Source of the DNA: Candidatus Borrarchaeum weybense
Lineage (GTDB): Archaea > Asgardarchaeota > Sifarchaeia > Borrarchaeales > Borrarchaeaceae
Reading direction: 5' to 3'
Length of the DNA: 64,000 nucleotides
Assembly: GCA_019057385.1 (NCBI GenBank)
Contig: JAHQJS010000004.1
Location: 676,962-740,961, forward strand
Below are positions 9,378 to 18,530 of the stretch, piece by piece. A model generated the notes under the pieces. That model was not told the origin of the DNA, made no database searches, and saw only the letters and a list, made by a program, of their open reading frames with translations. The position numbers were made by a program, and so were the translations under genes. Every line of letters begins with the position of its first letter. Position 1 is the stretch's first letter.

Positions 9378-10154
9378 GTGAATATGCATCCGGCAATAAT
9401 TGGTATAATGTATGTCATAGCGTTCTCGGTTTTATCCGTAGTTATTATGGTTAAAACAAAGTTCAACAACTTGTTGCGAATTGGGCTTTTAATTGCAGCA
9501 TTGCTTGCGTTTTATGTGCTTCCAACTGGACATTTGATCGGCTTAATGCCTAAATTGGGTTCTAACGGTGTAATGGCTGAAACAGGAGACGTTGGATCAG
9601 GTATCGTTACAGCGTATTCTTTCCCTTTAGCATTGTTAGCACTCATTGTAACACTTGGTCTTACCTTCTTTGTAGGACGTGCATTATGTAGTTATGGATG
9701 TCCTGTCGGTGTAGTTCAAGAACTCCTCTATGAAGCCCCAACTGGCAAAAATGGCGGAAACAAACTGACCTTGCCTACAAAAATCAGTTATTTCATAAGA
9801 TTGGGAGTACTAGGTCTGATAGTTGTCCTAGTTCTTGTCTTTGGTCTTGGACTTATTCAAATAGCAGCACTGTCTCCATTGGTAATTCCTGTGGCGTTCA
9901 TTATAGGTGTTTGTATTATAGCATCAATTTTCGTATATAGACCCTTTTGCAGGCTTTTCTGTCCCTATGGTGCCTTGGCAGCATTAGTGGCGAAATTCTC
10001 CAAAGTCAAACCAGGGAAGGGAGATTCATGTACGGAGTGCGGACTTTGTGATATGAACTGCCCAACAGGAGAATTAAACGAAAAGTATGGTGAATGTTAT
10101 CTCTGTGGACGATGTGTTCGAACATGCAATGTAGATGCTGTAAAATTCTGCTGA
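9378..10154 (+). CDS. Membrane 4Fe-4S binding protein (NapH/YccM-like polyferredoxin)
   Basis: TM helices, GRALCSYGCPVG, RPFCRLFCPYGA, CTECGLC...CP, CYLCGRC...C. Confidence 0.88.
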   Translation: MNMHPAIIGIMYVIAFSVLSVVIMVKTKFNNLLRIGLLIAALLAFYVLPTGHLIGLMPKLGSNGVMAETGDVGSGIVTAYSFPLALLALIVTLGLTFFVGRALCSYGCPVGVVQELLYEAPTGKNGGNKLTLPTKISYFIRLGVLGLIVVLVLVFGLGLIQIAALSPLVIPVAFIIGVCIIASIFVYRPFCRLFCPYGALAALVAKFSKVKPGKGDSCTECGLCDMNCPTGELNEKYGECYLCGRCVRTCNVDAVKFC

Positions 10155-10237
10155 GAGTAGATGATTTTGCTATCTACGGATAGCATTTTTTTTAAATTTG
10201 AAAGAATTTCGTTATTAGGTAATTGAAGGTGTAAAAA

Positions 10238-10969
10238 ATGACAGGGTCAAATGATAGAAATGCTGAAACAAAAACAGGTGCGAAATTAACGAGGAAAGAA
10301 CGTAAAAAAACGTTTCAAAAACAACATGATCTTGATGCGGCAACGGAACTGTTCAAAAAAGCCCCCTATGATGATGTAACGATGGATGATATAGCAGAAC
10401 AAACGCTGTTAAGCAGAGCTACATTGTACAAATATTTTGGTGGTAAAGAAGGCATCTACTTCGAAATCGGTATTCAAGGTTTTAGAATTATTTCCAAAAA
10501 GCAAGAAGCACTAATCAAATCTGAATCTTCTTCAGGACTCGATAAAATCTTAAAATTAAGCGAAACTATCCTTAGATATTTGTTTGAAAATCCATTAAGT
10601 CATGAAATCATGCGCCATTACCTTGTTACGGAAAATAAAGCAGAAATTACCACTGATAAGATCCTGAGGAAAATGAAATTAGGGGAAGATGTGGAGAATC
10701 CTTCTGATAGAATACGAGCAAGGTTTTTACAAGAAATCCGCAAATTCGAGAAACCCTGGGCAATCGCAGTGGAACAGGGTTTCAAAGATGGATCAATCCA
10801 CCAGGATATGAATCCCGATCATTTAGTGCATTTCCTTTTTATGATCATTTCTGGGATTGTTGATCGTGCCAACTTGGAAAGAGTAATGATGCAAAAGGTG
10901 AACTTATCCGTCGAAGACATCATAAAGAGGACTATTGATCTGATCCGGAAAGATTTGGGAAGTGACTGA
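10238..10969 (+). CDS. TetR/AcrR family transcriptional regulator
   Basis: AATELF...YDDVTMDDIAEQTLLSRATLYKYF..KE. Confidence 0.9.
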   Translation: MTGSNDRNAETKTGAKLTRKERKKTFQKQHDLDAATELFKKAPYDDVTMDDIAEQTLLSRATLYKYFGGKEGIYFEIGIQGFRIISKKQEALIKSESSSGLDKILKLSETILRYLFENPLSHEIMRHYLVTENKAEITTDKILRKMKLGEDVENPSDRIRARFLQEIRKFEKPWAIAVEQGFKDGSIHQDMNPDHLVHFLFMIISGIVDRANLERVMMQKVNLSVEDIIKRTIDLIRKDLGSD

Positions 10970-11016
10970 ACTCTTACGAATCATTAATTTGAAATATACA
11001 AAAAATTTGGCAGGAG

Positions 11017-11544
11017 GTGAAAAAAATTAGTTCAAGACATGATAAACACGAACATCTCGTAGGCGAAGAAATGCCTTATTCACATCTGCTGCAATTAAGT
11101 TCTGCAGTAGTGTTTCTACTAGTCTGGTCATTAGATTCTTTTATTTTCAAATTCTCTGTTTGGTTTGCAAATTTTGTGCCATGGGTGTTTCGATTAATTC
11201 TGGCTCTATGTGTGATCATACTTGGAATTATGCTAGCGCGTTCAGCGGAAAAGGCGTTATTTCAAGAAGAACTTGAGTCACCTAAAGTGGATGTAATTGA
11301 TACAGGGATACTTGGTCATGTGAGGCATCCTTTATACCTTGGAGTGCTATTAGTCTATATTGGATTCATTCTGGGAACATTTTCGTTGATTTCAGTTGCA
11401 GTTTTCGTATTAGTTGCATTAATTCATAATAAATTGGCAAATTATGAAGAACAGGATCTTGAGCGGATATTCGGTGAAGAGTATTTAGAATATAAGAGCA
11501 GGGTGCCAAAATGGATTCCACGCTTATCATCGGCCACTATCTGA
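11017..11544 (+). CDS. Isoprenylcysteine carboxyl methyltransferase/PEMT family membrane methyltransferase
   Basis: GI.GHVRHPLYLG, EE..L...FGEEYLEYK.RVPKWIP. Confidence 0.88.
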   Translation: MKKISSRHDKHEHLVGEEMPYSHLLQLSSAVVFLLVWSLDSFIFKFSVWFANFVPWVFRLILALCVIILGIMLARSAEKALFQEELESPKVDVIDTGILGHVRHPLYLGVLLVYIGFILGTFSLISVAVFVLVALIHNKLANYEEQDLERIFGEEYLEYKSRVPKWIPRLSSATI

Positions 11545-11567
11545 TCCTAAACTGTGAAGAAACAGTA

Positions 11568-12203
11568 TTAATCCTTTTTAACCTTTTTTTGACAGTATTT
11601 TACAATCTCCTGTGCACTCTTCCCTACTAACTGCTGTTCATCAGCCTTTATCGGATTATAAAGAAGGTTTAGACCCTTGAGGTTAGTGAGGTGCTCCAAT
11701 CCCTTAAGCTCTTTTATCCGGTTTGACCAAAAGGAGAGTTCTCTGAGTTCGGTAAGGTTTTCCAATCCTCTTATCTCTTCTATTTGATTCTCACTAAGAC
11801 CTAGATGTTGGAGGTTAGTGAAGTTCTCCAATCCCTCAAGCTCTTCTATTCGATTATGACAGAGATAGAGTCCTTGGAGGTTAGTGAGGCTCTCCAATCC
11901 CTTGAGGTTTTCTATTTTATTATCCATAAGGTTCAATTTTTTTAGGTTAATGAGAGATCCCAATCCTTTGATCTCTCTTATTCGATTATATTGGAGGTTG
12001 AGTTCTTTGAGATTTTTGAGATTCTCCAACCCTTCAATCTCAGTGATATCTTTAATCCCAATATTGCTAAGATCAAGTGTGCCGTTCTTGACATGATATT
12101 TCCTTCCTTTAACCGTCACAAAATCTGAATCTGGACTCATACACGGCACCACTTTCTTTTGTTGAAAGAGTTTATCCTCCTCTGAATTACGCGTGACTTT
12201 CAT
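11568..12203 (-). CDS. Leucine-rich repeat protein, SDS22-like 22-aa repeats (likely start 12140)
   Basis: About seven LxxLxLxxNxIxEIxGLExLxN repeats; 66-bp periodicity in DNA. Confidence 0.9.
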   Translation of the reverse strand: MKVTRNSEEDKLFQQKKVVPCMSPDSDFVTVKGRKYHVKNGTLDLSNIGIKDITEIEGLENLKNLKELNLQYNRIREIKGLGSLINLKKLNLMDNKIENLKGLESLTNLQGLYLCHNRIEELEGLENFTNLQHLGLSENQIEEIRGLENLTELRELSFWSNRIKELKGLEHLTNLKGLNLLYNPIKADEQQLVGKSAQEIVKYCQKKVKKD

Positions 12204-12263
12204 CTTGCATATTATAAATCTGATCCTAATAAGTTTTTTAAATCCTTAAATATATAGTATTAT

Positions 12264-12672
12264 TGTCTACTTTGCCACATCTGGCAATAGATGACACGAT
12301 CTAGTGTCATATTTGGCAACCAAGTAGAGCAATTCAGCAAGCAATAGAAAATCTAATTGCCACATATGAAATAGGTCACATGATCTATATCACATCTGGC
12401 AAACAGACAACACAAATCTAGTTGCCGTACCTAGCACAGGTAGAACTATTCAGCAGTTAACAAAAGATCTATTTGCCAAATTTGACAAATAGGTCAACAC
12501 GATCTAGTTGTCATATCTGGCAAACCAGAAACACCCAATCTAGTGATTAAAACAGGATTTGTTGTCACATCTGGCATATAGGTGACATAACCTAATTGCC
12601 ATATCTGACAACCAAGTAGAGCAATCCGACAGTTAACAAACAATCTAATTGCCACATTTGGCGAAGTAGACA
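12264..12672. repeat. Array of ten imperfect 16-bp palindromes (consensus ATCTAR-TTGYCAYATYTGRCAA) bounded by 17-bp terminal inverted repeats
   Basis: Cores start at 12272, 12304, 12357, 12387, 12422, 12473, 12508, 12562, 12596, 12649; ends TGTCTACTTTGCCACAT and ATTTGGCGAAGTAGACA match 15/17 as inverted repeats; spacers are themselves repeated. Confidence 0.88.
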
Positions 12673-12703
12673 TCTTAAAATAGAATATAAACGAGGTGAA
12701 AAG

Positions 12704-13936
12704 ATGTCTGCGATGATTCACCAAATTCCTATGCAGATCAAAATCCATGATCAGATTGTGGGAAATGGTGCGCATTATTGGGATACTCCTGCCAAGTGTG
12801 TTAATTTTGCTGCTTCACTGCAGAGGAGTGATATTACAAAAGATTTAATGTATAACGTTAATAAATCCACAGAATATCCTTTTCGTAGAAAGGTAAACAT
12901 AAGAAGAATAGACTTGGAGTACTGCCAAAAAGGTGTAGTAGAAGGACGAACTATCACCTACAAACCAGCACACAGTATAAAATTCATAGACCCTAACACT
13001 ACAAGTAATGAAGGATTCCTAAATGAACTCAGAAATTCTTCTTTTGCTGTTGATATTCCTCTTTGGTTCGCTAAAAAATCTGGTGACCTTGATTTAATGC
13101 CTTTAGGACATGCTTTAAAGAAATGGAATATGCAAATGATCTATCAGTATAAAGGGTGCAATCTTAATTGTCGGTATTGTTACGTTAGTGATATTGACAA
13201 CTCCGCCACAAAAGGGTGTTGTTCTAATATAACTCCGCGAGATATATTCGATTCTTACAGATTTTATAATGAACAGGGAAAAGTACAAGGCATTCGCTGT
13301 AGTGGAGGTGAACCAAGTCTATATTTGGATCACATACACAAAGTTATTAGAGTTTTCAAGGAAGAAAACAAGCCTGTTCTTATCCAACTTGATACCAATG
13401 GTTCAACATTTTCTTATATTGAACACATGCTAAAACATGACCCCAATTGGGATGATGTCATGATTCAAGACCTTGCCGAACACACGATGGTATTTTTTGC
13501 ATTTAAAGGAACCGATGATAAAACAATTCAGGAGATAACAAAATCAAAACTTACTTTAGATGATCAGTTTAATACTCTAAGATTTTACGTATCTAATGAT
13601 TTCGATGTGTACTTAAACCTATATAGTTCCAACCCTGTAACATTACCTTCTTTTATCGGACGGCTTGACGAAGAGTATGGTTCTAACGCTATAAGAAAAT
13701 TGCGTTGCCTTCCGCTAGAACTTTATTCTCCAACAAAACAAAGACTTGAGAGAGACGCTAAACATAAAGACATGTTTTTCAGGCGGCATCCTGAGCAATA
13801 TGCAACAGGTATCGGCATGAAGTGGATGCTAGATTTCCAAGCAAGTGCTAGATACTTGAAAAGAATATGCAGAGAAGAATATGGGTTCAAATACCCTGAA
13901 GTTATGCGCTGTAACTATAAAATAGGGGATAGGTGA
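12704..13936 (+). CDS. Radical SAM protein
   Basis: GCNLNCRYC (CxxxCxxC), IRCSGGEPS, LDTNG; GAGGTG SD. Confidence 0.9.
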   Translation: MSAMIHQIPMQIKIHDQIVGNGAHYWDTPAKCVNFAASLQRSDITKDLMYNVNKSTEYPFRRKVNIRRIDLEYCQKGVVEGRTITYKPAHSIKFIDPNTTSNEGFLNELRNSSFAVDIPLWFAKKSGDLDLMPLGHALKKWNMQMIYQYKGCNLNCRYCYVSDIDNSATKGCCSNITPRDIFDSYRFYNEQGKVQGIRCSGGEPSLYLDHIHKVIRVFKEENKPVLIQLDTNGSTFSYIEHMLKHDPNWDDVMIQDLAEHTMVFFAFKGTDDKTIQEITKSKLTLDDQFNTLRFYVSNDFDVYLNLYSSNPVTLPSFIGRLDEEYGSNAIRKLRCLPLELYSPTKQRLERDAKHKDMFFRRHPEQYATGIGMKWMLDFQASARYLKRICREEYGFKYPEVMRCNYKIGDR

Positions 13937-13942
13937 TCGTAA

Positions 13943-14866
13943 ATGCATGTAGAATCACTTGGTGGTCTAACTGCTCTTCTACCCTCACTCGCAACATTCG
14001 TAATCAAAAAGGGAAAAATTGGAAATAGAGAAGAACTATCAGAGAAGGAACGACGAATTTCTACATTTTTGGATCGATATAATGAAGTTACACCACAAGA
14101 TATTCTTAAGCGCGAAGAACATGCAGAATTCGGAATTAGACACGTCCCTGCCGAGCACATCCAATTCATGGTTGACAATGCGTTTAGTTCCGCAATTGAA
14201 CAGCTGTATAAGAATGAAATAATTGCTTCGGATTCTGAAAATTTCGGATCCAAACTAAAAGAATTTCGGGGAATTGCTCAAAAATTAGAATACTTACGAT
14301 TTTTGCCTCGCTTAGACATGAACGTTCTGAAAGAGGAAGGTCGATTAATTGAATTAAGAGATAAGTCGTTAGATGAACTCACGCAGTTTAAGTTAATGTA
14401 TGAGGGCCCCTTATTCACGTTAGCAAATATACTTGAGTCAGTATCAAATCATACTTGCTGGATGCATCTCTTTAAGCTCATTCCCTATTTGATTCGCAAA
14501 GAAGTTTCTATCAAAGAAATGATTGAAATGACTCATAAGGTAACTGATATGTCGATAGATGCACAACCTATAGTTACTCCCGCTGAGAAACTCAAGTCGA
14601 TCTCCGACACTCTTGAAACGCTTTATCAGGGATTTAAAGAAGAAATATTTGAATCTGATGCTCCTAAGATAAATGTACTCGAATTGATTCAAGAGATCCT
14701 ATCCACGCTTGACAAACAAATGGATAATCCAACAGATTATTTAGAGGTGAACGAAGTCTTGGGGAAAGGGGGCTTCAGGCACTCATCGCGCTTCAAAAAA
14801 CTGAATAGTCCTACATACTTGGTTCAAAACACACAGGCTGCAAAAGGAGTTTTCTTTTCTCAATAG
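13943..14866 (+). CDS. Hypothetical helical protein
   Basis: 307-aa ORF with AGGTGA SD, 6 bp after the radical SAM stop; no motif recognised. Confidence 0.7.
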   Translation: MHVESLGGLTALLPSLATFVIKKGKIGNREELSEKERRISTFLDRYNEVTPQDILKREEHAEFGIRHVPAEHIQFMVDNAFSSAIEQLYKNEIIASDSENFGSKLKEFRGIAQKLEYLRFLPRLDMNVLKEEGRLIELRDKSLDELTQFKLMYEGPLFTLANILESVSNHTCWMHLFKLIPYLIRKEVSIKEMIEMTHKVTDMSIDAQPIVTPAEKLKSISDTLETLYQGFKEEIFESDAPKINVLELIQEILSTLDKQMDNPTDYLEVNEVLGKGGFRHSSRFKKLNSPTYLVQNTQAAKGVFFSQ

Positions 14867-14923
14867 GCTTCTTTTATTCTAAGAATATTGTGGATGTTTG
14901 ATACGAATGGAGGAAAAAATTGA

Positions 14924-15673
14924 ATGAAGGTCGCAATAATTGATGGAACAGATATACGAGGAGTAGGTTTAGCTTTACGCTGGGCAAAAAACAGTGATAT
15001 AAATCTCCTTATCGGATCCAAAGATGAAAATGCTGCAATTAAGGTCGCAGCAGAAATTCGAAAAACTACAGGTGCGTCCCAAGATCGTGTTACTGCCATG
15101 TCAATTATTGACGCTGCAAAAAATGCAAATATAGTTGTTTTAACAGTCCCATTTCGAGAACAAATTTCTACACTCGAAGAAGTAAAAGACTATCTAAAGA
15201 AGAATACCCTACTGATAGATACAACGCTCCCAATAGAAGTGGATGATGACGGTGAACCGGTTTTTGTGCAAGTTGAGGCAGGTTCTTGTGCCCAACAGGC
15301 AAATCAGATAGTGGGAGATAGCGTAAAAGTTGTTTCCGCCTTTAAACCTCTTGGAGCTGAGTGTCTCTCCAATCTGGATGAAGAATTAACATGTGATGTT
15401 ATTGTTTGTAGTGATCATGACGACGCGAGAAAAATTGGAGTACATCTAGTAGAGAAACTCTCATCAACACTAAAGATTACAGAAGGTCCTCTTTCTTTTG
15501 ACCATCTCTCAGAAAAACTGGTTGCCACGCTGATCAACTGGAATAAAAAGTGGGGGCAGTTATGCAACGTCATACGAGTTCCAATGGAAGGCGTTGAAGG
15601 ATCGATGTGTAGTTGTTTGAATCCCTTCCTTAAGTTGTGTCCGAATAGAGGCATAAAATGTCTGTCTATATGA
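14924..15673 (+). CDS. F420-dependent NADP oxidoreductase-like protein with altered Rossmann motif
   Basis: MKVAIIDGT..RG.GLALRW, IGSK, VLTVPF, GSCAQ, VVSAF, CDVIVCSD, GPL match NpdG/Fno; GGTGxxG is replaced by DGTDIRG. Confidence 0.75.
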   Translation: MKVAIIDGTDIRGVGLALRWAKNSDINLLIGSKDENAAIKVAAEIRKTTGASQDRVTAMSIIDAAKNANIVVLTVPFREQISTLEEVKDYLKKNTLLIDTTLPIEVDDDGEPVFVQVEAGSCAQQANQIVGDSVKVVSAFKPLGAECLSNLDEELTCDVIVCSDHDDARKIGVHLVEKLSSTLKITEGPLSFDHLSEKLVATLINWNKKWGQLCNVIRVPMEGVEGSMCSCLNPFLKLCPNRGIKCLSI

Positions 15674-15690
15674 AAAAATAACGATAATTT

Positions 15691-16461
15691 GTGTTTGAGG
15701 CAGAAGATTGTATGAATGATCATTTATCACAATTAGAAGATCGATTTCTGGTCCTTTTATATAAAAACGCAGGTATTTTTCCGCTTTATGAACGAATGGA
15801 CTTTGGCAAGACGGAGCTTTCGCTAGGTAAATTGATTTTCTGGTACGCTGGAAAACTTGAAATCGGAACAAAAACTCTTCTAAGGACATTGAAGAGTCTT
15901 GAAGAAAGAGGAATCATTGAAAGGAAGGACTGTGCAAGAAAACGTTCTTTATTAATGAGATACATCCTCACAAAAAAGGGAAGGGAACTGGCAATTCAAT
16001 TTATGACAAGATTAGAAGCAGCATGCTCCAAAGCGTCAGAATGCTATATCAAAGTATTAACAAAGACAGAGAGCAGTGAAGGTGCAGAACAGCCACTTTT
16101 TGCGATAAAAAAGGGACATATATTAGCAATCGAGAACGTTACAGTAAAGAAAGAATTCACAGGGGGCACAGAGTTCGTTATTACATTTGGAGACACGCTT
16201 GTAGTTACAGTTAGAACGAAACATGCAGCGCATGAGGTTTTCATAAAAGGACTTACTTACGACGCTAAGTCTTTTGAGAAGGCAAAACGATATGCACTTG
16301 TCATTTTACGGCAGAGACGCAATTCCAAAAGAAATCAAATATCTTCTAAATTTGTTCCTCTCACTCCCATCTCAGGGGACTATCTTTCAAGAAAGCTACC
16401 TTTACGGCAAAAAACTAAAAAACTTCTCGAAGAATGGAAGCGACATACGATTCCTTTCTAG
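15691..16461 (+). CDS. Winged-helix DNA-binding domain protein
   Basis: TLLRTLKSLEERGIIER...RYILTKKGRELA (MarR/PadR-type wing). Confidence 0.7.
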   Translation: MFEAEDCMNDHLSQLEDRFLVLLYKNAGIFPLYERMDFGKTELSLGKLIFWYAGKLEIGTKTLLRTLKSLEERGIIERKDCARKRSLLMRYILTKKGRELAIQFMTRLEAACSKASECYIKVLTKTESSEGAEQPLFAIKKGHILAIENVTVKKEFTGGTEFVITFGDTLVVTVRTKHAAHEVFIKGLTYDAKSFEKAKRYALVILRQRRNSKRNQISSKFVPLTPISGDYLSRKLPLRQKTKKLLEEWKRHTIPF

Positions 16462-16513
16462 CGCACATTACTTAAGATGTTGTATTGAAAAAAAGGATAA
16501 ATGACAACATGTT

Positions 16514-17350
16514 CTATTGAGCCCGTGGGTATGAACCTAGGATATACAGGAACGACGTCAGTTCTTTGAGTTCCTCAAGAGCATCACTAAATTTTTTATC
16601 CTCAATGTGTCCTCCAAAATCCAGAAAGAAGATATAGTCACCAAATTTCTTTTTTGAAGGGCGTGATTCGATTTTTGTCAAATCTATATTCCTTTCCGCA
16701 AAGGGACGAAGCGTCTCGAAAAGAACGCCAGGTCTATTGATAATTCCATATACAATAGATGTTTTATCATTGCCTGTTGGTTTCTTTAGTTCTTTGCCCA
16801 CGATAACGAACCGCGTAACGTTGTTTTCCGCATCCTGAATATTTTCGTCTAAAATCTTGAGTTGATATTTTATCGCTGCTCTTTTTGACGTAATAGCCGC
16901 AGCATTTTCGTAGATGCCTCCAGCCACTTTAAGTGCCGCTTCAGTGGTAGAAGCTGCTGCTAATACTTCTGCCATTGGATAGTTTTTGTTGATGTATGAC
17001 TTACATTGTGAGAGTGCCTGTGGATGTGAGATAATGGTCGTTATTCTCTCAGATAGATCTGTAGCTAAAACATGGGCAATGGGAAGTAAGATCTCTCCAA
17101 CTACTTTGATATTTTCGTTAACAAGTGAATCCAATGTAGAAGTAACTGAACCCTGTAAAGAGTTCTCAATGGGGACTACTCCAAATTCGCAAATGTTTTT
17201 TGCAACAGAATTAACTACAGCTTCAATTGTTCTGTAAAACTTGAAATGGGTCTCATCAAAAACCGTTAATGCTGCAGCTTCAGTATAAGTTCCTCTAGGG
17301 CCGAAAACCCCAACTTTTTCATTTTCAGAAAAGACGATACCCCTGCATAT
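16514..17350 (-). CDS. pheA: Prephenate dehydratase with ACT domain; frame is open to about 17350 but lacks a canonical in-frame start
   Basis: Upstream of the annotated TTG (17134) the frame encodes VGVFGPRGTYTEAAA and GVVPIENSLQGSV; downstream SHPQALSQC, NVTRF, DLTKIESRP, LGSYP. Confidence 0.9.
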   Translation of the reverse strand: MCRGIVFSENEKVGVFGPRGTYTEAAALTVFDETHFKFYRTIEAVVNSVAKNICEFGVVPIENSLQGSVTSTLDSLVNENIKVVGEILLPIAHVLATDLSERITTIISHPQALSQCKSYINKNYPMAEVLAAASTTEAALKVAGGIYENAAAITSKRAAIKYQLKILDENIQDAENNVTRFVIVGKELKKPTGNDKTSIVYGIINRPGVLFETLRPFAERNIDLTKIESRPSKKKFGDYIFFLDFGGHIEDKKFSDALEELKELTSFLYILGSYPRAQ

Positions 17351-17417
17351 TCAATCCTCCGTATACAGCAGAAATATCGCATTAGGTTATCCCTTAAATA
17401 GTTTTCTAAGGGGATTA

Positions 17418-18530
17418 TCATTTTCTCTTTTTCTTCTTAAATTCCTTAACGATTTCGATATACTCTTTTACGGGAATGACATTTGGCTTCCGACGAAACC
17501 CTGCAGGTATGGTTGCATCACAACGAGAACAGAGGTTTGAACTTTTCTGCCAATCCTTGAATTCATCAGCATGTGCTGGATATCGACAATGAGGACAAAG
17601 AACAACGCCACGATCCTTATCTTCGGATTTAAAATCTTGAAAGCAAAATATGCATTTGAAATCTTCCAATGTCAGTATCCCTGCTTTCGGTTTGAGTTTT
17701 TCGAATTTTTCACTCATTTTAGGTTTTGTTTTCCGTTTAGTTTTCTTCCTAGTTGGAGTTGTAACTGCTGTTGTTGTTTTCTTGGTAGTTGATCTTTTCT
17801 TCTTGGTGGTTGGTGAGGTACTACGAGTTCTTGTCGTTGTTGAGGTGGTAGTTGTGATGGTAGTTGATCTTCCACCCCTAGGAGTTGTTGACGAACTGCC
17901 TGTCGTGCTACCGGTACTACTACTTTCAGGTATGTCTCTGCGAATAACTGTTGAAATGTCAGGGATTGCAGATTTTCCACCGAATATCCCAAATACGATC
18001 AATAAAAGCAATGAGATAATACCCAGTAGCCAAAACATTAAACCAGAGAAGAATTCCAACGCGAAATAAAATCCAAGGATTGTAATTAAAAAACTTAGAA
18101 GAATGCCAAATTTGCGGGCACTAAATGATTTCTGTCCAATATAAACCACTGCATATCTTTGGAGACAAGAATAAAGTATGAATAAGCCATACATAAGATA
18201 CGGAACTGCAAAAATGAATGTCCACGGACTCAATTGTACTGTTGAAGTCTCCAGAAGATTCCCTCTGAGTAAACCTGTAGAACGTCCCCACAAACTGTAA
18301 AGTATTCCTATAAACAGAGGACCAAAAACAAAGAACGAAGTATTATGCGGTGAGCGAAATTCACGAGCATATTTTACCCTAATTACGAATGCTAAGGTAA
18401 AACATATCCAACATCCAACAGCTAGCCAAGAAACGAACACATCTGTTGAGTTTTCAATTCCCATGCCATGTACAACTGCAGTAATTAGGCTCGCCAGTAA
18501 TATGATGGCATACCATCGCTTTTGTACCAA
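17418..18530 (-). CDS. Polytopic membrane protein with Ser/Thr/Lys-rich linker and C-terminal RING-like zinc finger (putative E3 ligase)
   Basis: About six TM helices; CIFC-x15-CPHC-x4-H..EF..W-x6-CSRC; last gene of Ubl-E1-E2-JAB run. Confidence 0.8.
   Translation of the reverse strand: MVQKRWYAIILLASLITAVVHGMGIENSTDVFVSWLAVGCWICFTLAFVIRVKYAREFRSPHNTSFFVFGPLFIGILYSLWGRSTGLLRGNLLETSTVQLSPWTFIFAVPYLMYGLFILYSCLQRYAVVYIGQKSFSARKFGILLSFLITILGFYFALEFFSGLMFWLLGIISLLLLIVFGIFGGKSAIPDISTVIRRDIPESSSTGSTTGSSSTTPRGGRSTTITTTTSTTTRTRSTSPTTKKKRSTTKKTTTAVTTPTRKKTKRKTKPKMSEKFEKLKPKAGILTLEDFKCIFCFQDFKSEDKDRGVVLCPHCRYPAHADEFKDWQKSSNLCSRCDATIPAGFRRKPNVIPVKEYIEIVKEFKKKKRK

Follow-up and report, generated by a model that had tools for sequence, protein, structure and literature searches.

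We analyzed a 64-kb stretch of DNA (64,000 nucleotides; hereafter, the window) from Candidatus Borrarchaeum weybense and found, directly upstream of an operon headed by a radical S-adenosylmethionine (SAM) gene, an array of ten palindrome-like sites. The array is not a set of independent palindromes but is built of inverted doublets. The sequence evidence suggests that it is most likely a lineage-specific cis-control element of this orphan radical SAM operon in Candidatus Borrarchaeum. The best-supported mechanism, which we consider quite possible if short of probable, is a 5′ leader of the operon that is transcribed and structured; this role and that of a duplex operator may coexist.

The 16-bp cores of the ten sites start at positions 12272, 12304, 12357, 12387, 12422, 12473, 12508, 12562, 12596, and 12649 and follow the consensus TTGCCA-N4-TGGCAA. 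Most sites also have TCTA-N to the left of the core and N-TAGA to its right, and the extended consensus, TCTA-N-TTGCCA-N4-TGGCAA-N-TAGA, is a perfect palindrome with half-site centers 10 bp apart. The start-to-start spacings given in a first-pass annotation of the window (32, 53, 30, 35, 51, 35, 54, 34, and 53 bp) were reproduced exactly; they form two narrow classes of 30–35 and 51–54 bp. A search of the window with the site pattern at up to 3 mismatches returned 13 matches, 12 of them inside the block, compared with a mean of 0.54 and a maximum of 3 matches in the shuffled window, confirming that the ten-site array is real. The sites differ in quality. Site 1 is the sole perfect palindrome, sites 3 and 4 have one good half-site each, and site 5 is very degenerate, scoring 11.7 bits against a position-weight matrix compared with 15.6–24.7 bits for the other sites. 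An extra decayed site is found around 12538–12556, and GTAG or CTAC words stand beside several units.

The repeated spacers described previously were also recovered: a long spacer occurs three times (starting at 12321, 12437, and 12613; 74–77% identity) and a short ATAG(A/G)T.ACA spacer four times (12287, 12372, 12489, and 12578). The array is bounded by a terminal inverted repeat, which proved longer than the 17 bp first noted, with 25-nt arms that are 88% complementary (12264–12288 and 12648–12672). As stated in the first-pass annotation, the array ends 20 bp before GAGGTG (12693), and the ATG follows at 12704. Helical phasing, also claimed there, is true between neighboring sites; over the whole array it is not significant (Rayleigh 0.58 at periods of 10.3–10.7 bp, p = 0.17 versus random spacings), the best whole-array period being 10.8 bp.

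The ten palindromic sites are thus present, but comparison of the sites with each other revealed that they are arranged as inverted doublets. Neighboring sites across a short spacer are complementary at 17.25 of 22 Watson-Crick positions, compared with 12.5 for random site pairs and 11.0 for a site with itself (permutation p = 0.0005). Where a site departs from the consensus, the departure is mirrored in its partner across the short spacer and not within the site itself: TGACAA faces TTGTCA in sites 6/7, TTGTCA faces TGACAA in sites 8/9, and TGAAAT faces ATATCA in sites 3/4. One flank pair reads A-T, G·T, or G-C across the units. Folded as a single long hairpin of ~60 nt, 11 units (paralogs plus orthologs) are 96.9% paired, and 6 of 500 shuffles equaled this pairing or the covariation score; three of the hairpin pairs show A-U, G-U, G-C or C-G, U-A series in the same alignment. 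The rival fold, two small hairpins, is 72.5% paired, and 496 of 500 shuffles were equal or better. Together, these data identify the inverted doublets, and not the single palindromes, as the real units of the array.

Site 1 pairs equally well with site 10 and with site 2. The 25-bp closing helix that joins sites 1 and 10 was recovered when each of the five orthologous arrays (233–409 nt) was folded to minimum energy. Fold z-scores were −8.4 for the + strand and −7.6 for the − strand. The non-Watson-Crick cells of the hairpins comprise 13 G·T, no A·C, and 6 other combinations; counted as separate mismatch events and with the closing helix included, there are ~11 G·T against 1 A·C (two-sided binomial ~0.006, from a post hoc count by eye). 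This excess of G·T over A·C hints that the operon's sense strand (+) is single-stranded.

To place the array in its evolutionary setting, we compared the genome of the window (G000; 4.18 Mb in 8 contigs, with the window on contig C4) with two distant orthologs. Identity was 87–93% in the half-sites, 80–95% in the central N4, 87–97% in the array flanks, 82–87% in the spacers, and 97% in the 31 bp that separate the array from the ATG. The four-fold degenerate sites of the radical SAM gene reached 72–73%, and the intergenic DNA just upstream of the array 72–77%. Because the array (82–97%) exceeds the four-fold degenerate sites to this extent, the whole block, spacers included, is under purifying selection. 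The half-sites are no better conserved than the spacers, the N4, or the flanks, although the numbers are small. Among the differences listed for two population contigs of ~95–96% identity over the stretch compared, none lies at 12258–12425 (sites 1–4). Overall, substitutions in the population contigs show no strand bias, with 9 C>T against 8 G>A and 4 A>G against 3 T>C.

The first-pass annotation had raised the question of whether homologs of the radical SAM gene carry similar arrays. All five distinct orthologous loci do, each before the same operon. Site number varies among them: 10 sites in G000, 7 (sites 1–4 and 8–10) in L018–L020, 6 (sites 1–5 and 10) in L022, 6 in L030, and sites 1–5 and 10 plus an unrelated insert in the congener Candidatus Borrarchaeum yapensis (G004, locus L023), also an Asgard archaeon. 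This insert (L023:2870–2935) is ~65 bp long, richer in G+C, unrelated to the repeat units, and located between sites 5 and 10. Sites 1–4, site 10, and both outer flanks are kept in every orthologous array, and the site spacings show no indels between orthologs; the recombinant junction in L018 again measures 53 bp. The core sequence is kept in paralogous units older than the species split. Because the junctions fall in repeated spacer or flank sequence, inner hairpin units are evidently gained or lost by recombination between repeats, giving rise to the 6-, 7-, and 10-site forms. Metagenome contigs of three further studies carry the 10-site form, and one carries a form that skips 206 bp. A further radical SAM ortholog (84% identity) has an intergenic region of 717 bp.

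The array is a single locus in the 4.18-Mb genome, as judged by BLAST, pattern, weight-matrix, and covariance-model searches. A pattern search of 400 other Asgard genomes for the clustered motif returned singletons only, except in G004 at the orthologous locus, and the hairpin covariance model, run on 151 Asgard genomes, matched G000 and G004 plus two sequences at chance level. No match to a two-site pattern was found in viral contigs, and Rfam covariance models over positions 11000–14000 gave only three chance-level matches (E of at least 2). Neither the array nor the radical SAM operon was found in three other congeneric genomes that are 69–77% complete. In short, the array is always found with the radical SAM operon and was found nowhere else. 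Single matches to TTGCCAYATYTGGCAA (at most 1 mismatch) occur in 143 of the 400 Asgard genomes, several-fold above a reversed control pattern; a common coding word or base composition are possible reasons for this excess. A separate genome scan for clusters of perfect 6-Nx-6 palindromes, which is blind to imperfect arrays such as 12264–12672, found only one region, outside the window, at C4:148439–151563. Here, regular perfect TCTTA-type palindromes (TCCTTA-N5-TAAGGA) recur at least 8 times per ~540 bp over 3 kb, and this region is probably an array of clustered regularly interspaced short palindromic repeats (CRISPR).

We then considered how the array lies relative to promoter-like and ribosome-binding elements (Table 1). 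CTAATAAGTTTTTTAAATC is the sole conserved TATA-like element upstream of the array. The TATA-like TTAAATATA at 12247, to which the first-pass annotation had pointed, is not conserved and reads TTAACTGTA or TTAAATGTA in the orthologs. Read on the + strand, CTAATAAGTTTTTTAAATC would predict a transcription start at ~12264, the first base of the array, because the usual archaeal spacing from TATA box to start is ~26 bp. At the other end, GAGGTGA is conserved 5 nt ahead of the ATG, which implies that the mRNA has a leader. Between the array and this Shine-Dalgarno sequence, there is no conserved TATA-like box at a workable distance, and the A/T-rich words at 12675–12692 are too near for an mRNA that includes GAGGTGA. 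No run of five or more T, a potential archaeal terminator, occurs within the array. The placement of the array between the promoter-like box and the conserved Shine-Dalgarno sequence, with no T-run terminator, fits the reading as a leader. A multi-hairpin leader co-transcribed with the enzyme genes had been among the first suggestions for this block; of these, the sequence statistics favor such a putative leader. Genome-wide, TATA-like words before genes led by a Shine-Dalgarno sequence show a weak peak at −40 to −65, which is insufficient to place this promoter. Both conserved A/T boxes also contain TATA-like words on the minus strand, ATTTAAAAAA (12243–12234) and TTTATATT (12692–12685), so a minus-strand transcript across the array toward the LRR (leucine-rich-repeat) gene may exist.

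On these grounds, we propose a working model for the leader. The operon would be transcribed from the invariant A/T box at ~12234–12243, and a start at ~12264 would place the whole array in a 5′ leader of ~440 nt. On the + strand, the complementary neighbors across each short spacer could pair to form four imperfect hairpins of ~60 nt. Alternatively, site 1 with TGTCTAC could pair with site 10 with GTAGACA, a complementarity found in all five orthologs, and close the domain; the conserved A/U-rich stretch and the Shine-Dalgarno sequence would then be left free. The repeated, conserved palindrome would probably be the recognition unit of a dimeric protein. The sole candidate is the MarR-like winged-helix protein, whose gene closes the operon; it might set read-through, stability, or translation of the leader. 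We offer more tentatively, as a doubtful extension, that the array represents a new genus-restricted structured RNA: a leader of ~230–440 nt composed of REPIN-like doublets with a 25-bp terminal helix, whose stems are read by the winged-helix protein. If this were true, the same palindrome family would do double duty as DNA operator and RNA decoy or would switch between the closing helix and hairpin 1, and the array would be a first example of a domesticated palindrome-doublet cluster serving as an operon-specific riboregulator in Asgard archaea.

Several observations weigh against a structured leader. Fold energies favor neither strand, the units summing to −225 kcal/mol on the + strand and −232 kcal/mol on the − strand. 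Among four informative orthologs, no double-sided change was found in 46 pairs, and the RNAalifold covariation term (+0.81) gives no support; all covariation evidence therefore comes from paralogous units that share ancestry. Template-switch repair of imperfect inverted repeats could yield complementarity between arms without selection. Two population variants, 12484 G>T and 12667 T>G, break predicted pairs. The arms of the hairpins are in turn conserved 6-N4-6 palindromes, a design required of an operator for a helix-turn-helix dimer but not of a plain RNA hairpin. From the A/T words at 12675–12692, a leaderless mRNA could be expressed that begins with the ATG at 12704 or at 12713; such a promoter would have the array upstream of it. 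Finally, the sequencing runs found to contain the array comprise 20 DNA runs and no RNA run.

The explanation that competes best with a leader is that the array acts as double-stranded DNA. Each 16-bp palindrome would bind a helix-turn-helix dimer, most plausibly the MarR-like winged-helix protein of the operon; dimers on neighboring sites, ~3 or 5 helical turns apart, would bind cooperatively; and the complex would repress or activate the radical SAM operon, perhaps together with the divergent LRR gene. Binding at site 1, just downstream of the A/T box, would block polymerase recruitment, and the other sites would provide cooperativity or roadblocks. We regard this operator array as possible but on balance unlikely. 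Part of the cooperative binding platform proposed in the first-pass annotation does fit: the extended consensus is a perfect palindrome with the half-site distance usual for helix-turn-helix dimers, and the winged-helix gene is present in every ortholog locus that reaches that far, the N-terminal fold of its product being closest to MarR-family dimers. An operator would also agree with the core retained in paralogous units that predate the species split, with the two narrow, indel-free spacing classes (the L018 junction included), with purifying selection on the array, and with the lack of any other motif site in the genome, as expected of a local autoregulator. However, the half-sites are not better conserved than the spacers, N4, and flanks, and the phasing over the whole array is not significant. 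The deviations mirrored between neighboring sites are not predicted by a dimer site, an excess of G·T over A·C is meaningless for duplex DNA, and sites 3, 4, and 5 are poor palindromes. The fold matches to MarR are themselves weak: for the N-terminal ~110 residues, MarR-family dimers were the best Foldseek matches, with E ~2e-3 and a target-normalized template-modeling score of ~0.5 for a model with a predicted local distance difference test value (pLDDT) of 67. Profile matches to HxlR and SlyA are likewise weak, and the β-rich C-terminal domain had no match. Moreover, winged-helix homologs of 53–58% identity in Sifarchaeia stand in another gene context, beside MoxR-VWA genes and not with a radical SAM gene, and no similar array was found in the surrounding DNA examined. 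The winged-helix protein is nevertheless a candidate binder of the array under either role.

Less probable still is a relic or selfish tandem expansion of palindromes without function. Such an expansion would resemble a REPIN cluster, a bacterial interspersed mosaic element (BIME), or an old miniature inverted-repeat transposable element (MITE). Unequal recombination and hairpin-templated repair would account for its growth, and the long intergenic region around it would tolerate it. The architecture is that of REPIN clusters, with inverted doublets foldable as one long hairpin or a “clover” and with alternating short and long spacers (PMC3116915); GTAG or CTAC words flank several units; close strains differ in copy number (6, 7, or 10 sites); and the genome has one IS200-type Y1 transposase gene. 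Against this, there is one locus per genome with no dispersed copies among the 400 Asgard genomes searched by pattern and the 151 searched by covariance model, and no copy of the motif lies in 3.4 kb around the Y1_Tnp gene (contig C7). The block is clearly above neutral-site conservation, both array ends are kept in every ortholog, and sites 1–4 show no difference in the ~95–96% identical strains among the differences listed. For a MITE in particular, which the first-pass annotation had suggested, the array does have terminal inverted repeats, the 25-nt arms with 88% complementarity; we rejected this reading, since the array is unique in the genome, lacks a target-site duplication (the flanks, TTAT and TCTT, differ), and occupies all five orthologous loci, with no empty site among them. 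Confinement to a single locus in the genome and, among the other Asgard genomes searched, to the orthologous locus of the congener means that the array is not a MITE or REP (repetitive extragenic palindromic) family.

Binding sites for a partition or initiator protein, as in the iteron or centromere-like array raised in the first pass or in a replication origin, are very improbable. Tandem units with a 16-bp palindrome resemble the plasmid centromeres sopC and parC, and the locus is unique. The neighboring genes lend no support: the nine flanking open reading frames (ORFs; 9378–18530) encode no ParA, ParB, or replication-initiator domain in Pfam searches. The four Orc1/Cdc6 genes (Cdc6_C matches) lie on contigs C3, C5, C7, and C8, and not on C4, and no A/T-rich unwinding element was found between inverted boxes. 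The block sits exactly between the promoter-like box and the ribosome-binding site, and the joint lack of array and operon in the three incomplete congeners is more in keeping with an accessory island than with a site for chromosome maintenance. That the array is a decayed coding repeat or encodes small precursor peptides for the radical SAM enzyme can be virtually dismissed: at several sites, one frame of the core translates to Cys-His-Ile-Trp-Gln, but the copies lie in different frames and contain in-motif stops (TGA in sites 6 and 9, TAA in L018 site 2), there are no start codons or ribosome-binding sites, and no stop-to-stop frame exceeds 40 residues within the array, the 3′ part of which is overlapped by a chance 106-residue minus-strand frame and by the frame leading into the radical SAM gene.

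Table 1. Features of the array and of the neighboring genes (window positions; R1, covariance model; D3, repeat family; I2, inverted repeat).
Feature	Position	Strand	Remarks
LRR gene, divergent	11568..12141	−	Pfam LRR_4, E = 2.5e-29; annotated ORF start 12203
Invariant A/T-rich block CTAATAAGTTTTTTAAATC	~12227..12245		Candidate B recognition element/TATA box; identical in all five orthologs
Whole array	12264..12672	+	Ten palindrome-like sites, 409 bp; noncoding, between divergent LRR gene and radical SAM gene
5′ arm of closing helix	12264..12288	+	TGTCTAC plus site 1; 25-nt arms, 88% complementary
Hairpin doublet 1, sites 1 + 2, short spacer	12266..12325	+	R1 75.8 bits; competes with closing helix for site 1
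Long spacer copy 1	12321..12350	+	Repeat family D3; kept in orthologs
Hairpin doublet 2, sites 3 + 4	12351..12408	+	R1 70.4 bits; degenerate inner halves TGAAAT/ATATCA mutually complementary
Site 5, degenerate, unpaired	12416..12443	+	11.7 bits; in 4 of 5 orthologs
Long spacer copy 2	12437..12466	+	Repeat family D3
Hairpin doublet 3, sites 6 + 7	12467..12529	+	R1 70.8 bits; missing from shorter orthologous arrays
Hairpin doublet 4, sites 8 + 9	12556..12617	+	R1 77.3 bits; inverted repeat I2
Long spacer copy 3	12613..12642	+	Repeat family D3
3′ arm of closing helix	12648..12672	+	Site 10 plus GTAGACA; retained in all orthologs irrespective of inner-unit number
Conserved A/T-rich stretch, then Shine-Dalgarno GAGGTGA	12673..12703	+	5 nt before ATG; 97% identity to orthologs with 82% protein identity
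Radical SAM gene, 410 aa	12704..13936	+	First in operon; Pfam PF04055, E = 9e-16
307-aa protein gene, family unassigned	13943..14866	+	No Pfam or NCBIfam match; always after radical SAM gene
NADPH-dependent F420 reductase-like gene (NpdG)	14924..15673	+	TIGR01915, 164.9 bits versus cut-off of 149.8
Winged-helix protein gene, 256 aa	15691..16461	+	Fourth in operon; MarR-like N-terminal domain, β-rich C-terminal domain

The radical SAM protein matched no specific NCBIfam family and is an orphan, only orthologs of 82–96% identity having been found. Its first 18 codons (12704–12757) hold at least 11 differences from contigs that are otherwise ~95–96% identical; a cluster of four nucleotide differences at 12732–12735 encodes PMQ in G000 and PRL in the relatives. 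The same contigs show no difference in array sites 1–4 among the differences listed. A TetR gene also lies nearby, but its presence at the locus is not conserved. On the other side of the array, the annotated start of the LRR gene is probably wrong and the ATG at 12141 real, because the orthologs keep the MSPDSDF start and not the upstream frame. The LRR gene is built of 66-bp (22-residue) tandem units, with 3.8 copies at window positions 11675–11924. In Sifarchaeia, at L033:2134–4524 and L034:236–2830, three co-oriented genes of similar size (249–258 aa), the last of them encoding the winged-helix homolog, stand beside a convergent MoxR-VWA gene; the three have no Pfam matches and may be tandem paralogs.

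How Asgard archaea control their genes is, to our knowledge, almost entirely uncharted. The array would add to this field a selected, operon-specific control element of unusual build. If it acts as RNA, it would define a new family of structured leaders and show that a hairpin-forming repeat has been recruited for regulation; if it acts as DNA, it would be an unusually large operator array with variable copy number and an atypical MarR-like binder. Either way, the orphan radical SAM operon would be marked as tightly controlled, and the array and the winged-helix protein form a defined pair open to in vitro study, for which the organism need not be cultured.

The array shares features with four kinds of known systems. 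The plasmid centromeres sopC (plasmid F) and parC (plasmid R1) likewise consist of tandem palindromic units for a dimeric DNA-binding protein beside an operon, whereas the array is chromosomal, is composed of inverted doublets with two spacer classes, and has no gene for a partition ATPase or adaptor nearby. Repeated protein-binding RNA hairpins, such as the CsrB/RsmZ-type sponges and the five iron-responsive elements of the transferrin-receptor mRNA, resemble what the array would be as a transcript: several similar hairpins conserved in both sequence and structure, in variable number. Their conserved motif lies in the loops, whereas that of the array lies in the stems and has no Rfam match. 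Multi-operator regions are known for the MarR family and, in archaea, for Lrp-type regulators with regularly spaced palindromes, e.g. Ss-LrpB. Here, the likeness extends to the 6-N4-6 palindromes, some spacings of about three turns, the divergent genes, the promoter-like box, and the winged-helix gene in the operon. The array differs in having ten sites rather than one to three, a site number that varies between strains, spacers conserved like half-sites, deviations mirrored between sites, and no significant phasing over its whole length.

A further close parallel is with REPINs, REP doublets that form hairpins in bacteria (Bertels and Rainey 2011, PMC3116915), and with BIMEs. Both the array and these elements consist of short imperfect palindromes set as inverted doublets over a short spacer, able to form one long or two small hairpins; the doublets are better conserved as hairpins than as single palindromes, clusters alternate short and long spacers, and GTAG or CTAC words adjoin the units. 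REPINs, however, are known from bacteria, linked to a RAYT transposase, and present in tens to hundreds of copies per genome, whereas the array has no dispersed copies, no motif near the only Y1 transposase gene of its genome, and a single archaeal locus before one operon. In its build the array is REPIN-cluster-like, yet it stays fixed at a single locus.

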